Shown here one piece after another: positions 1 to 30,162 of a stretch of 30,871 bases of DNA; within the stretch, counting starts at the first letter, position 1; every line of letters begins with the position of its first letter. Source of the DNA: a virus. The notes beneath the pieces were generated by a model. The model had not been told where the DNA came from. It was given only the letters and a program-made list of their open reading frames with translations, and did not search any database. Where the stretch lies: the UHGV virus genome UHGV-0057520, one strand, 5' to 3'. The translations under genes were made by a program, and so were the position numbers.

Positions 1-471
1 CTAATAAAATACCCAATTTTCTGTTTCTTGGTTGTGTCCAAAGTTATATTCAATATCTGGTGTTGATGTATCAATATTCTTCATCCCATCAACAAGAGTT
101 GATACAACAGCCAAATCTTGTTTGATTCTCATTAAATGGTATTTCTTCCGGCGCAATAAACTTTCAATGGCAAGTTTCTTCGTTGGGAATGCAAAAGATC
201 TTTCTGCATTTTTTGCTACTTTCTTAATTGCATATCTATTTCTCTTTTGTTTCCATTCCTGTAACCACTGATTTGGTGCTGGTTTAAAATTAACAATCCA
301 ATGCGCAGGAACCAACCATGCATAATGCTCTGTCTGATGAAAAGCTATATATTGAAGTGCGAATATTTTGATTCCATCTTCTTCAACTGTCGCCTGGAAT
401 CTCCAGAAAACAGGCATTCCATCATGTTCAGTTTCTGATTCAGGAAAAGGTACGCTCCATGATATTGTCAT
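1..471 (-). CDS. hypothetical soluble protein, 156 aa, AT-rich accessory gene at the distal end of the pL operon
   Basis: Complete ORF with ATG at 469-471 and stop at 1-3; GAGGTGA ribosome-binding site just upstream on the minus strand; much more AT-rich than neighbouring genes; no hydrophobic segments; no family recognised. Confidence 0.5.
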   Translation of the reverse strand: MTISWSVPFPESETEHDGMPVFWRFQATVEEDGIKIFALQYIAFHQTEHYAWLVPAHWIVNFKPAPNQWLQEWKQKRNRYAIKKVAKNAERSFAFPTKKLAIESLLRRKKYHLMRIKQDLAVVSTLVDGMKNIDTSTPDIEYNFGHNQETENWVFY

Positions 472-533
472 ATCTCACCTCAAATAAGTGGTTTGCTGCC
501 AAAACAATGAACCATCCGGAAATTCCAGATAGT

Positions 534-758
534 TCATAATTCACTCTTCAATACTTCCAACTTACTAATCGCCGATAGATATCCGCGCTGATAGGGCATC
601 ATCATTCCTTCGAGCTTGCCACTTCTTAACTCCTCCCTGAGCAATTGTATTGCTTGATCAATAACCTCTGCCTTAGCGCCCTTTATGGCTTGCTTGCGGG
701 GCTTTGCTTTCTGCTTTGGCAGATTTCTCAAGCATGATGGAATGTATGTCTGATTCAT
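534..758 (-). CDS. small basic hypothetical protein directly downstream of N
   Basis: ORF track 534..761 begins on GTG; the first ATG is at 756-758 (MNQTY...); abuts the N stop codon; Lys/Arg-rich; no family recognised. Confidence 0.4.
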   Translation of the reverse strand: MNQTYIPSCLRNLPKQKAKPRKQAIKGAKAEVIDQAIQLLREELRSGKLEGMMMPYQRGYLSAISKLEVLKSEL

Positions 759-761
759 CAC

Positions 762-1034
762 TTACCTCGCCGTCAGTTGTTTTGATTTCCGGTAGCCTGC
801 CGAGTAAATGGCTACGTTTGGCAGGCAAATACTTCCACTGCATTCATCTGCCTTCTTGCTGAGAAGGCTGCCAAGTGATGCTGCTTTGTCTGCTCTGACG
901 CAACCAGAGAGCTTTAGCGCAATTTTTCGCGCCAGTCGCTGCTCTTGCATTGCCTGTTCACGTTGAGCCTGTCTGCGTGCTCTGCGGCGATTTCTGGCGT
1001 TATCGTCAGCCAGATATGTAATGACTACTGTCAT
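762..1034 (-). CDS. N: antitermination protein N (P22 gene 24-like)
   Basis: 90 aa; begins MTV(V)ITY and ends YRKSKQLTAR, matching my recollection of P22 gp24; arginine-rich RNA-binding motif (ARNRRRARRQAQREQ) near the N-terminus; sits downstream of oL/nutL. Confidence 0.8.
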   Translation of the reverse strand: MTVVITYLADDNARNRRRARRQAQREQAMQEQRLARKIALKLSGCVRADKAASLGSLLSKKADECSGSICLPNVAIYSAGYRKSKQLTAR

Positions 1035-1141: not shown

Positions 1142-1182
1142 TCCCGCATTTCGGCGGGACAATCCCATCAATGTTAAAGAGC
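1142..1182 (-). promoter_or_regulatory. nutL: boxB hairpin (1142-1159) and boxA-like element (1172-1182)
   Basis: Minus-strand sequence TCCCGCCGAAATGCGGGA is a 6-bp stem with 6-nt loop, identical to the hairpin after cro at 2839-2856; GCTCTTTAACA lies just upstream on the transcribed strand. Confidence 0.6.
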
Positions 1183-1230
1183 CTGCCAATCTGTTCCGTT
1201 TGGCTACCAGCGTCCTGCTGATGGCTAAAG

Positions 1231-1271
1231 AATACTGTAGGTATTTTATTGTGTAAATACCCAAGGTATTT
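1231..1271. promoter_or_regulatory. oL operator pair with pL
   Basis: Two palindromes of form AATAC-N5-GTATT (AATACTGTAGGTATT at 1231-1245; AAATACCCAAGGTATTT at 1255-1271), same half-sites as the cI-cro intergenic operators. Confidence 0.55.
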
Positions 1272-1402: not shown

Positions 1403-1771
1403 TTAGTCAGCGAAGGTTAAGACGAGAATTACCTTAATGATGTCTGCTACAACAGACACGGCCATAGATAAACCAAAGACGATCCAAGCCACAGTGATGT
1501 CTTCACTACCATCGTATAGAGTTCCGTAATCACTGGTGTAAGGCGTAAATGTCGCGCCTTGATACAATAGGTATAAGCTTGATCCATAGAGGATAAATGC
1601 AGATATCCCTTGTATTGCTATGATCACAAGAATCATGAAACGAGCTGATCTATGCGCCCAAGCCTGGCTTATTTTTTCTGATAGAGATTTCGCAATAAAA
1701 GCATGCGCTAAGCCGTAAATTGTCGAGATTGCCAACATCCCAAAAAAGCTTGCTATAGCGGTTCCAACCAT
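1403..1771 (-). CDS. small multi-pass membrane protein co-transcribed with cI (candidate lysogen-expressed exclusion protein)
   Basis: ORF track 1403..1792 begins on TTG overlapping the cI stop; first ATG at 1769-1771 preceded by a GGGG ribosome-binding site; about 122 aa with three to four hydrophobic helices; occupies the position rexA/rexB hold in lambda. Confidence 0.6.
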   Translation of the reverse strand: MVGTAIASFFGMLAISTIYGLAHAFIAKSLSEKISQAWAHRSARFMILVIIAIQGISAFILYGSSLYLLYQGATFTPYTSDYGTLYDGSEDITVAWIVFGLSMAVSVVADIIKVILVLTFAD

Positions 1772-1788
1772 AAGCGCCCCTTGCGTGA

Positions 1789-2505
1789 TCAAACCAGCCT
1801 TAGTTTTGTCTCAATTGCAACGCCTATAATCTTGCAGTTTCCATTGATTGGCACGAGAGGCCATGCAGGATTAAGTCCCTTGAGGTATTTATTTCCGCCG
1901 TCGATTATCAGCTTCTTGAATGTTGCTTCGTTAGAGTCAGAAAGTTTTGCTATGACCAAGCTGCCGTTGATCGCCTCCCTTCCGGTATCGAAAAGAACGA
2001 ATGTTCCCTCTGGAATGCTTAACCCAACCGGTGCCGTCATTGAATCACCTTCCACTTTAAGCCAGAACGCATTACCTTGAATATGCGCGTCAGACTCAAG
2101 CCAAACATCTATGTCTTTAATGGTGTATGGTTCGCATGCTTCACACCACGAGCCAGCCTGGATACTGCTTAACACCGGATACCTCTTTCCTGCTCTGTAT
2201 TCCCCTGCATACCTTACGTTGGCATCGCTCTTAAGGCTTTCTGCCTGTTCTGCAACCTTGGCAGCAATTGACTGGCTAAAATCAGCAATTGAGACTTGCA
2301 ACAATCGTGCAAAACCAGATGCAACCTCAACGTTTAGCGCGTTTCTGCCATTAAGATAATGCCCTACCGCTCCTTGGGTGATACCCAGTTCATCAGCGAT
2401 TGAGTATTGGGTTATTCCCAATTCTTTCTTTTTTGACTCATACAAAGCCTTAAGCCGCTTAGCGTCTTCGAGCTGTTCTGTCGTCAGTGATTTTTTATTT
2501 TCCAT
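1789..2505 (-). CDS. cI: cI-type prophage repressor (HTH N-terminal domain, LexA/S24-like C-terminal autocleavage domain)
   Basis: 238 aa; N-terminus LTTEQLEDAKRLKALYESKKKELGITQ and C-terminus FWLKVEGDSMTAP...TFKKLI closely parallel lambda cI as I recall it; divergent from cro across an operator region. Confidence 0.9.
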   Translation of the reverse strand: MENKKSLTTEQLEDAKRLKALYESKKKELGITQYSIADELGITQGAVGHYLNGRNALNVEVASGFARLLQVSIADFSQSIAAKVAEQAESLKSDANVRYAGEYRAGKRYPVLSSIQAGSWCEACEPYTIKDIDVWLESDAHIQGNAFWLKVEGDSMTAPVGLSIPEGTFVLFDTGREAINGSLVIAKLSDSNEATFKKLIIDGGNKYLKGLNPAWPLVPINGNCKIIGVAIETKLRLV

Positions 2506-6006: not shown

Positions 6007-6192
6007 ATGAGTCGACGAAGTAGCTTTTTGGGGTTTGTAATATTCCTGTTCTGCACTGGTTACATCGTAATCTGGTCAATTTCGAACATTGACCGTGGCG
6101 GGGAATATCTCATTGTAATGTTCTTTCCTTTGTTTCTTGGGTGGTACGCCGCAAGGTTGCTGGAAGAATGGGGTTACAGGCATAAAAAATAA
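6007..6192 (+). CDS. small membrane protein, about 61 aa, two predicted helices
   Basis: ORF track starts on GTG at 6001; ATG at 6007 with AAGGAG upstream; hydrophobic stretches FLGFVIFLFCTGYIVIW and LIVMFFPLFLGWYAA. Confidence 0.45.
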   Translation: MSRRSSFLGFVIFLFCTGYIVIWSISNIDRGGEYLIVMFFPLFLGWYAARLLEEWGYRHKK

Positions 6193-6251
6193 AGGAGTGT
6201 TCAGTGACGCAAACCATTTTTTATTGGATTAAGAGCGAGTGGTAAGTACCG

Positions 6252-6434
6252 ATGGTAAATGCATTTATTTGTAGTTTATTTCTTGTCGCGATTTTTCATG
6301 GATTCCTTTTGATGATGAGTTTTGTTCTCTGGAATAATGGATATCGCATATTGGGAGTAGGTTTTGTTTTACGGTTTTCAGTTCTCTGCGCGTTGCTACC
6401 GATAATTATGGCGACTATCAAATATTATTGGTAA
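6252..6434 (+). CDS. small hydrophobic membrane protein, 60 aa, AT-rich
   Basis: Almost entirely hydrophobic (two helices); weak ribosome-binding site, so coding status is uncertain. Confidence 0.35.
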   Translation: MVNAFICSLFLVAIFHGFLLMMSFVLWNNGYRILGVGFVLRFSVLCALLPIIMATIKYYW

Positions 6435-6449
6435 CCCAAAAAATCATCG

Positions 6450-6818
6450 ATGGAGAGTGATATGGACGAATCAAGAAAGCAGTTTGAGGAATACGTTGCC
6501 AAAAAATTGAGATTACCATTCGAGATGATAACCGAGGCAAGAAATGGTGATAGGTACTTCGCATTTTCAAGCATGGATATTCGTCACTCCTTAAATGAGT
6601 GGTGGACTTTATGGCAGGCATCGCGAGCAGCTATTGAACTGGATATCGACTGGCCAGAATCGAATGACGACTTTTGGAAAGATGGTGAAGAAGGTGCTTA
6701 TGCGATGGGTTATGAGGATGGGCGTGACAAAACGGTAATTGCAGTAATGAAAGCTATCAGAGCCGCTGGAATTAAAGAGAAGAATTTCGATGAAGCAAAC
6801 AATCTTCCTCCGAAGTAA
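6450..6818 (+). CDS. hypothetical acidic protein (nin-region)
   Basis: ORF track start 6450; an alternative ATG at 6462 has a better GGAGAG ribosome-binding site; no family recognised. Confidence 0.45.
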   Translation: MESDMDESRKQFEEYVAKKLRLPFEMITEARNGDRYFAFSSMDIRHSLNEWWTLWQASRAAIELDIDWPESNDDFWKDGEEGAYAMGYEDGRDKTVIAVMKAIRAAGIKEKNFDEANNLPPK

Positions 6819-10060: not shown

Positions 10061-10135
10061 GGGTCAGTCGTATAAAGGTCATTACGGAAGGCTGTTAACC
10101 TTCTTATCGTGGTTCGAGTCCACGCTGTCCCGCCA
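10061..10135 (+). tRNA. tRNA-like gene, anticodon GUU (Asn), non-canonical D-arm and one acceptor-stem mismatch
   Basis: Manual fold: acceptor 6 of 7 bp, perfect anticodon stem GAAGG/CCTTC with loop CTGTTAA, T-arm CGTGG-TTCGAGT-CCACG, 3' GCCA. Confidence 0.5.
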
Positions 10136-10140
10136 AATAT

Positions 10141-10216
10141 GCTGGTTTAGCTCCAATGGTAGAGCAGTCGCCTTGTAAGCGAATGGGTAGCGGTTCAAGT
10201 CCGTTAACCAGCACCA
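10141..10216 (+). tRNA. tRNA-Thr (anticodon UGU)
   Basis: Manual fold: perfect acceptor stem GCTGGTT/AACCAGC, D-arm GCTC-CAATGGTA-GAGC, anticodon loop CTTGTAA, T-loop TTCAAGT, discriminator A and CCA; 5 nt after the first tRNA. Confidence 0.7.
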
Positions 10217-28170: not shown

Positions 28171-30162
28171 ATGACAGACATTACAGCCAATGTTGTAGTG
28201 AGCATGCCTTCGCAACTCTTCACTATGGCGCGTTCTTTTAAAGCCGTAGCTAATGGCAAAATTTATATCGGTAAAATTGACACTGACCCGGTAAATCCTG
28301 ATAACCAGATTCAGGTCTATGTTGAGAACGAAGATGGTTCTCACGTTCCTGTTGCACAGCCAATCGTCATCAATGCCGCTGGGTATCCAGTATATAACGG
28401 ACAGATTGCCAAATTCGTAACTGTGCAAGGCCATTCTATGGCTGTTTATGATGCATGTGGTGCGCAGCAGTTCTATTTTCCAAATGTGCTGAAGTATGAC
28501 CCGGATCAGTTAAGGCAGGAGTTAGCAAGTTCAGGTGATGATCTTGGAGATGCATTAATAGCAGTAAAACAACCATTCACCTTGTCAATAAGAAGGACGC
28601 AGCATCAAAAAAATGCCGAGCACATTAGTGTTAGTGATTTTGGTGCAAAAGGAGACGGCATAACAGATGATACTGTAGCAATTCAAAATGCTATTAATGC
28701 AGTACCAGAAGGGGCTATACTTGGATTTTATGGTGGTGAATTTGTTTTTGATAAGGTTGAATTGCTTAAGCCAATAACATTGGTTGGTGATGCAACGTTA
28801 ATTCACAACGGATTTAGAATAAAATCTAGCAGAATACGATCACTTTTATCTGGTGTTCAGAAATGCAAGGATTACTCCGAGTCTTCAAGAGCATTTTATT
28901 GCTATGCAAATGAAGACCAAAGAGATTATGACGATATTCAGATTTTGTTTAATAGATTTGAAGGTTTCTTTTACTCTACGACATTTGTTGCAAAAAACTA
29001 TTATTTGGAGAATGACCCTAATTCAAGAACTGTCAAAAATACAAAAGTAATAGGATGTACATCAGTTGCTCCTGATTCTGTAAATGCCGGTCATTTTCAA
29101 CATATAGGCGTTACAAATGCTGAAACATCACATAACTCAACTTATGGCGGACAAAATGCAACATCATACAACTTCATTAACCAGAATGGATTTGTAAGGA
29201 TTATAGGAAATTATGACCATAACAATAACTATGGTTCATGTGAGCTTGAGAACTCAATGGTGAGTAACTCAGTCATATCATGTAATACGTTTTCGTCATA
29301 TTTATGGGTGGATGATACAAGCAATGTTACTATTTCTGGAAATACAGTTTCATCAAGGATCAAAGTAACATCGCAAACTGACGATGTTCATAATATAACC
29401 ATATCAGCAAATACCACAAAACGGATTACTATAGAGCAATTTGGAGAATCTCCGACAGGTCTGGTATATGGTGCATTAATTTCCTGTAACACTATTACTG
29501 GCGACAGTGATGGAAGTTCAGACATTTTATGTACGTCACTTGTTACAGGTGAAATTTCATCAAATTATTGTCATGGATCAGAAAAAAATATATCAATTGT
29601 CCGCCTGGATTCTTCTGATATAACTGTTAGAAACAATAAAGGAAACAAAGGATTACTTACAATAAGTAACGATGGTGGGAGGATAATTGAATATGGCAAT
29701 GATTCTATGGTTCTGTCTGGAAGCATAGATAGCAGACATATACATAATTTATTACAACCAGACACATCGTATTTAGATCTACCGGGGAAATATCTGCACG
29801 GAACTAAATATACTGGCAGTATCCCCCCCGGTTCCACAGGAACTGTATCACTTCAAATACCATCAGGGGCAAGCCTTGTTTTCAGGGGTGTTTCTATATG
29901 GGTTCTAATTAGAGATGTTAGCAATAACAATATATCGTCATTCAGAATTGATGGTTCATATAGAGTTGTTGGTGGAAGTGTTGGTCTTAGTTTTGCTGAT
30001 GCTTATTCGAAACTCGGGGTGGATGCAAACTCTATAACAGTGTCAAACAATAACAGCACTTCTGACAATATCAGCATAGCAATTAAAAACACAGATTCAT
30101 CAAAAACCCTTCAGGTTACTGTTATGCCGGAGGTTTCAAGCAGGTTAGGTATTGAGGAATAG
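28171..30162 (+). CDS. tailspike: P22-type head-binding N-terminal domain fused to a different, AT-rich receptor-binding domain
   Basis: 663 aa; first ~110 residues ([11 protein letters not shown]...[20 protein letters not shown]...VLKYDPDQ) match P22 gp9; the rest carries beta-helix/pectate-lyase-like signatures ([18 protein letters not shown]) and is Asn/Ser-rich. Confidence 0.85.

Follow-up and report, generated by a model that had tools for sequence, protein, structure and literature searches.

UHGV-0057520 is a stretch of 30,871 nucleotides (nt; hereafter the window, meaning the whole stretch) from a P22-like (HK620/CUS-3-like) lambdoid phage, which runs from the early-left operon through the tailspike. 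The first 471 nt of the window encode, on the minus strand, a protein of 156 amino acids; we denote this open reading frame (ORF) ORF156. Here we show that ORF156 is a selected, mobile, promoter-less gene located in the N-proximal slot of the pL operon. As for what the protein does, we tentatively favor, at somewhat less than even confidence, a composite reading under which ORF156 would be a pL- and N-dependent early accessory protein that does not work as an enzyme but binds either nucleic acid of the host or a protein that handles nucleic acid. Within this reading, the parts that concern identity and regulation stand on much firmer ground than the mode of action, which is the least certain.

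ORF156 is a genuine protein-coding gene under purifying selection, given the low ratio of nonsynonymous to synonymous substitution rates among its close alleles (dN/dS of 0.04-0.18), the homologues that are conserved over the full length down to 20% identity, and the confident AlphaFold model described below. Against a 64%-identical Salmonella-phage orthologue, dS is saturated. The following elements were delineated at the ORF156 locus:

1..471, minus strand: ORF156 coding sequence, ATG at 471-469, TAG at 3-1, 156 codons; member of PHROG 1636
475..481, minus strand (read 481→475): Shine-Dalgarno (SD) sequence GAGGTGA, spaced 3 nt from the ORF156 ATG
472..487, minus strand: conserved linker TTATTTGAGGTGAGAT, the shortest upstream stretch common to all contexts
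480..500, minus strand: N fossil GSKPLI*, the last six codons and the stop of a lambda-type N gene (21 nt)

The SD sequence shows 7/7 complementarity with the 3' end of 16S rRNA and is identical across all genomic contexts examined, in agreement with the strong ribosome-binding site that an earlier note on this DNA, made from the letters alone, had described for the ORF. The same note had called the ORF far richer in AT than its neighbors, and this holds for the one flank visible in the window, the stop codon being located exactly at the window edge. The GC content of ORF156 is 35.7% (27.4% at codon position 3), compared to 44.3% in the neighboring orf75, 50.9% in N, 45.5% in cI and 47.0% in the whole window, which places this stretch within the lowest 3% among all 471-nt windows. 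Because the shortfall is found at the third codon position, the composition cannot be an amino-acid effect alone. In the enterobacterial clade of the family, the deficit amounts to 9-12 points, at codon position 3, whereas in distant relatives, it is just 2-4 points, so that it is attributable partly to amino-acid composition and partly to a clade-specific codon bias.

The earlier note could not assign ORF156 to a family. The protein is in fact a full-length member of PHROG 1636 (E 3e-111, residues 1-156 aligned to positions 1-156 of the 156-position profile), although this is a family without an assigned function, so that with respect to function the statement stands. ORF156 is 98-99% identical to gp45 of HK97 (NP_037731), to ST933Wp19 of 933W (NP_049479) and to an unannotated ORF of H-19B, a difference of two to three residues; all are the same protein, with the same length, SD sequence and post-N position in the pL operon. 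More than 80 further phage records, mostly of phages converting to Shiga toxin (Stx) production, contain ORF156 at 98-99% identity. The gene is present in 598 of the 5426 complete Escherichia coli genomes (~11%), some of which hold as many as four copies, and is annotated as hypothetical every time; in a large contig collection, the identical protein was detected in 338 contigs. Thus, ORF156 is already known: it has been in the databases since 933W and HK97 were sequenced, and is catalogued as PHROG 1636. In this window, it is no new kind of element.

Close orthologues with 55-85% identity are found in other Enterobacterales, including Pectobacterium, Brenneria, Cronobacter and Rosenbergiella, and more distant relatives in phages and prophages of Pseudomonas, Vibrio, Pantoea and marine gammaproteobacteria. 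An exhaustive profile search yielded 87 representatives at 50% identity, nearly all of 130-160 amino acids, which map to PHROGs 1636, 13631, 25384 and 28215, none with an assigned function. Apparent fusions among the longer matches (P0062, P0080, P0051) look spurious or mis-started and were set aside. An association with plasmid leading regions was considered and dropped: only 11 of 72,556 plasmid records contain ORF156, all of them non-mobilizable and many of phage-genome size. The family is phage-restricted, and ORF156 is its E. coli lambdoid allele.

The transmissible unit is larger than the ORF. An alignment of four contexts shows that homology begins just 5' of the SD sequence and extends in the relatives ~130 nt beyond the stop codon, that is, the cassette consists of the SD-bearing linker, ORF156 and, in relatives, a structured 3' untranslated region (UTR) of ~130 nt that ends in a strong intrinsic terminator. 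Mobility was assessed in a census of 80 near-identical (≥98%) copies of ORF156 from IMG/VR. The region from -400 to -30 of these copies falls into ~15 sequence classes and the region from +150 to +400 into ~13, whereas the first 140 nt past the stop codon are the same in 68 of 75 copies. The upstream neighbors include at least five types of N, a ral-like ORF, a 230-amino-acid protein, a membrane protein and others, orf75 being but one among ~15 alternatives. The occurrence of a near-identical cassette behind ~15 different upstream and in front of ~13 different downstream neighbors, joined at a conserved linker, strongly supports horizontal exchange, and the horizontal acquisition suspected in the earlier note is borne out by this comparison.

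The linker itself is derived from the 3' end of N. In the fullest form of the cassette, found in 611R6, L013, L014 and L020, an intact lambda-type N (ending in YRKPRSEMGVTCVGRQKMKLGSKPLI followed by the stop) terminates 8 nt before the ORF156 ATG, and the SD sequence overlaps the N stop codon. The same 90 nt of upstream DNA are present in L023 and L026, where no intact N was called; a remnant of the N tail of 61-62 nt is found in HK97, 933W and L081, one of 28-29 nt in the window (positions 480-500, encoding the fossil) and in L022, and the upstream remnant is reduced to 16 nt in phi367, L045, L053, L019 and L032. The N 3'-end sequence upstream of ORF156 was also observed in L012, L014 and L020. 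The upstream DNA common to the contexts is thus limited to 16-90 nt, comprising the SD sequence and the N-gene remnant, and the graded series of remnants (16, 28, 62, and 90 or more nt) reveals stepwise truncation at recombination joints.

Phage mEpX2 has a linker that differs in one base (GAGGTGATAT) and, with the ATG, stands ahead of an unrelated 60-amino-acid ORF. At mEpX2 gp39 (L094:1321-1503, matching positions 472-533 of the window), orf75, the hairpin that follows it, the N fossil, the SD sequence and the ATG are all as in the window save for that one base. The near-identity of the linker in front of a different ORF indicates that it serves as a recombination joint between mini-cassettes. 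The 60-amino-acid ORF is followed by its own terminator, GGCCGCATAGTCGGCC, which also precedes ORF156 in contexts of the phi367 type, indicating that such mini-cassettes can be stacked. The post-N slot is thus made up of stackable SD-ORF-terminator mini-cassettes that recombine at the conserved linker.

Beyond the window, the terminator of the cassette in relatives is GCCCTCCAGTGTGAGGGCTTTTTT, ~130 nt past the ORF156 stop codon. The 3' UTR of these relatives has a minimum free energy of -48.4 kcal/mol (z -4.65), and no Rfam family was found for it; this region could give rise to a 3'-UTR-derived small RNA or could serve as a terminator only. In HK97, the segment L002:3466-3620, which corresponds to DNA beyond position 1 of the window, was observed to contain a hairpin of 12 bp, another stem and an intrinsic terminator of the canonical kind.

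In the leftward direction, the order in the window is cI, a membrane ORF, the OL/pL region, nutL, N, orf75, a hairpin and ORF156, with the following coordinates:

1789-2505: cI, upstream of ORF156 in the leftward order
1403-1792, minus strand: membrane ORF (129 amino acids), the next gene after cI, where HK620 carries hkaS; PHROG 6534
1222..1257, minus strand: pL promoter and OL operators, by homology to the HK620 annotation
1142..1183, minus strand: nutL, placed by comparison with the HK620 annotation (97.5% identical DNA)
762..1034, minus strand: antiterminator N of the HK620 type (PF25694)
534..761, minus strand: orf75, the upstream neighbor of ORF156 here; PHROG 5305, no assigned function
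507..537, minus strand: hairpin of 14 bp with UUGUUUUGG behind it, resembling a weak terminator, where orf75 ends

ORF156 shares the strand of pL and lies downstream of both nutL and N. A crude scan of positions 1-1500 for the sigma-70 consensus retrieved pL alone and, in particular, no promoter-like site between pL and ORF156. The hairpin (537→507) has a weak U-tract, and transcripts from pL must read through it to reach ORF156. With no promoter of its own and with both N and a terminator-like hairpin ahead of it, ORF156 would be transcribed from pL, and only after N-mediated antitermination.

Beyond ORF156, the relatives that show this side of the gene (phi367, HK97, 933W, 611R6 and a chromosomal copy of 100% identity) carry ea10/DUF2528, cIII and kil, together with either gam/bet/exo or erf/recT. 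ORF156 accordingly occupies the position of lambdoid pL-operon accessory genes, the slot after N and before cIII/kil and the recombination genes. The earlier note put the ORF last in the pL operon, which does not hold: the window stops at the ORF156 stop codon, so that the distal end is an artefact of cutting. The expectation that the region after N carries ral, exclusion and other functions was well founded, with ral in phi367, the putative exclusion gene hkaP in HK620, and other small ORFs in the same slot. Like ORF156, the genes ral, sieB, ea10 and HK620 hkaP/hkaQ reside in this variable N-cIII slot and are small, dispensable-looking and mosaic. However, no similarity in sequence or profile was found between ORF156 and Ral, Lar, SieB or Ea10 in the Pfam and PHROG scans (for Ral and Lar, also NCBIfam), and in phi367, ral is a separate gene immediately upstream of ORF156. 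Of the two outcomes that the earlier note had named as refuting its view, neither turned up: no early gene with a defined function proved homologous to ORF156, and nothing was seen that argues against its expression. Compared to the 933W-type arrangement, the window differs in that ORF156 follows an HK620-type N and orf75, rather than coming directly after a 933W-type N.

The position in the early-left operon appears to be conserved over a long evolutionary distance. In three marine gammaproteobacterial prophages, a relative with 20-26% identity belongs to the early operon that runs leftward, with a cI-like S24 repressor on one side and an integrase on the other, and is surrounded by recombination genes, methylases and small ORFs. 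In Salmonella phage NX263, the relative is the first gene in a divergent, early-looking cluster, and in a Vibrio phage, it adjoins recE-like genes.

The ORF156 product is a protein of 18.6 kDa with a pI of 8.8, no cysteine and seven tryptophans. Its charge is strongly partitioned, with a pI of 4.8 for residues 1-60, 11.5 for residues 74-118 (16 lysines and arginines) and 4.05 for residues 121-156. The AlphaFold model, obtained with a deep alignment supplied, has a predicted local distance difference test score (pLDDT) of 92.4 and a predicted template modeling score (pTM) of 0.79. It consists of long β-strands (residues 19-30, 33-46 and 50-55), short helices (56-59 and 66-74), another strand (83-86), a 33-residue helix (98-130) in the basic segment, and an ordered acidic C-terminal tail. 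The residues conserved family-wide are the aromatic residue at position 23, R24, G33, E/Q46, T47, K87, R91/92, A94, A101, R108, K109 and F155, and an 18-residue N-terminal extension is present in the enterobacterial clade only.

When the model was compared to known folds, ~25 of the top 60 matches were SH3-like small β-barrels (Tudor, KOW, chromo, PWWP, SH3), and the N-terminal part may be an acidic small β-barrel of the SH3/Tudor-like class. Among the weak matches are the C-terminal Tudor domain of UvrD/PcrA and the KOW domain of NusG/Spt5, both of which bind RNA polymerase; together with the Tudor-like PipX, these SH3-like small β-barrel proteins with C-terminal helices are the nearest known systems with which the predicted fold can be compared. 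A structure search of BFVD produced 13 matches at E<1e-3, all of them uncharacterized phage proteins, from phages of Erwinia, Achromobacter, Delftia, Rhizobium, Sinorhizobium, Tenacibaculum and Cellulophaga. Two of the phages with such fold relatives, the N4-like phiAxp-3 and the Vi1-like phiEa2809, we take to be virulent. These matches suggest that the modeled fold is phage-wide and has no structurally or functionally characterized relative.

Searches for a function by similarity gave no leads. No informative match to ORF156 was found in scans of Pfam and NCBIfam, nor did three queries yield one in sequence and profile searches of the PDB, and Pfam scans of 80 family members returned nothing meaningful even at E≤10. 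Two candidate assignments were rejected. A three-stranded DNA-binding domain of the AP2/integrase arm type, prompted by the motif RFAFxTKEEA at the junction between the β-sheet and a helix (xFxTxEEA), was rejected by hhalign. A 2H phosphoesterase, such as Acb1, which counters the cyclic-oligonucleotide-based antiphage signaling system (anti-CBASS), was prompted by the motif HxT; it was rejected because the histidine is not conserved and the model does not match the 2H fold with its two HxT/S motifs.

Under the composite reading, ORF156 would be transcribed from pL past the hairpin after N antitermination, and its anatomy suggests that it is expressed in early lytic growth or upon induction but silent in a stable lysogen. 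The product is predicted to be a soluble cytoplasmic protein with a small β-barrel, the basic helix and the acidic tail. Via the basic helix and the conserved cluster of lysines and arginines on the β-barrel scaffold, it would bind stoichiometrically either a nucleic acid or a host protein that handles nucleic acids, and would serve in host takeover or counter-defense rather than as an enzyme or a prophage exclusion gene. Several points weigh against this proposal. The promoter scan was a crude consensus search, which a weak or non-sigma-70 internal promoter could escape. A conserved neighbor that would point to a partner or a pathway was sought among the distant relatives, and the neighbors proved to be unrelated; a search of the literature for the function of this protein found none. 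The basic helix is a suggestive hint of nucleic-acid binding in a predicted model, not proof of it, and many characterized anti-defense proteins are acidic DNA mimics, whereas ORF156 is net basic.

Among the alternatives, a regulator of development or transcription, which would bind DNA or contact either RNA polymerase or Nus factors and thereby adjust the N-dependent early transcripts or the choice between lysis and lysogeny, much as cIII, Ea8.5 and Orf63 modulate development, seems unlikely to us, if still worth weighing. The start of ORF156 8 nt after N in the fullest form of the cassette, with the SD sequence over the N stop codon, suggests coupled expression, and the basic helix, the weak fold matches to RNA polymerase-binding domains and the N-terminal extension peculiar to the enterobacterial clade are all compatible with a regulator. 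Yet the cassette works behind many different genes, the distant relatives do not adjoin N-like genes, the fold is also found in non-lambdoid phages, and the profile scans detected no helix-turn-helix or other known DNA-binding domain in ORF156 or its family.

Still less probable, in our estimate, is an exclusion or defense moron of the sieB, rexB or HK97 gp15 kind, expressed in the lysogen and directed from the prophage against superinfecting phages. Morons such as HK97 gp15 are promoter-gene-terminator units, and the ORF156 cassette resembles them in its AT-rich, atypical composition, its discrete insertion between conserved genes and, in relatives outside the window, its own terminator. Moreover, ORF156 is abundant in prophages, and the same slot holds sieB in lambda and the putative exclusion gene in HK620. 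For ORF156, however, the crude consensus scan detected no promoter of its own, such as morons and sieB possess, the shared upstream DNA being confined to the ribosome-binding site and the N remnant, and ORF156 lies downstream of pL on the same strand. Unlike SieB and Rex-type exclusion proteins, ORF156 has neither membrane segments nor a matching profile: no transmembrane segment or signal peptide was predicted (the maximum 19-residue hydropathy is 0.56). The PADLOC scan gave no convincing match, only a weak partial alignment to Cas1_II (E 0.0097, 13 bits), and neither PADLOC profiles nor solved-structure folds matched ORF156 to known defense or anti-defense families. The fold relatives in phages that are presumably virulent also speak against a lysogenic function. 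Given that the cassette lacks a promoter and presumably relies on pL and N, the term promoter-less early mini-cassette, with the conserved SD linker as its joint, suits ORF156 better than moron.

We give equally little credence to a small enzyme or ligand sponge that acts on nucleotides, for example, by degrading or sequestering an immune signal, with E46-T47, K87, R91 and K109 forming a phosphate site. A handful of polar residues is indeed conserved across relatives with 20% identity, and the size and predicted early expression of the protein resemble those of known sponges and phosphodiesterases. Nevertheless, conservation across the family extends to E/Q-T but not to the histidine of HxT, and no enzyme family was matched in Pfam, NCBIfam or PDB, nor was any enzyme fold. 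Finally, the reading that ORF156 is open by chance in non-coding, AT-rich DNA or is a pseudogene in decay, for which truncated or internally deleted database copies are the sole support, is effectively refuted by the 156 codons open in DNA of 36% GC, the dN/dS values, the full-length conservation down to 20% identity, the pLDDT of 92 and the conserved SD sequence.

Several features elsewhere in the window were recorded in the course of the analysis. The N protein of the window (762-1034) and that of L014 are the same in residues 1-57, including the arginine-rich motif, except for A28E, and then diverge, with C-termini ending in CLPNVAIYSAGYRKSKQLTAR and GVTCVGRQKMKLGSKPLI, respectively; the common front and different C-termini point to a recombination joint inside N. 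The 129-amino-acid product of the ORF at 1403-1792 has three hydrophobic regions (~4-34, 49-75 and 97-129) and belongs to PHROG 6534, which has no assigned function; by position, it is a candidate for a lysogen-expressed membrane protein of the rexB/sieB kind. A second AT-rich patch (6150-6600, plus strand, 37-38% GC) is located upstream of ninB and overlaps an ORF of 122 amino acids (6450-6818, plus strand) with no Pfam match. Genes for two tRNAs, Asn(GTT) and Thr(TGT), lie side by side at positions 10061-10216 (plus strand) in the late-regulatory region. The stretch with the lowest GC content in the window (33%; 28700-29400, plus strand) lies within the ORF at 28171-30162, a P22-type tailspike with an N-terminal Head_binding domain and a pectate-lyase-like repeat; the low-GC part is the receptor-binding part and probably represents another exchanged module.

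The junctions of ORF156 provide a clean example of accessory-gene swapping in lambdoid phages via a conserved SD/start linker. The prevalence of the gene in E. coli and in most Shiga-toxin phages, the purifying selection and the exchange as a cassette make ORF156 a reasonable target for function screens, as does its confidently predicted fold, which has no solved relative. A bolder possibility, which we consider less probable than not but worth stating, is that ORF156 and its relatives make up a family of early phage proteins that is new in structure and has a specific target in the host, being either inhibitors of a nucleic-acid-sensing defense or binders of the transcription-elongation machinery. 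The latter, if true, would explain the ancestral translational coupling to N. Should this be the case, given its carriage by most Stx phages, ORF156 could affect their induction or host range.
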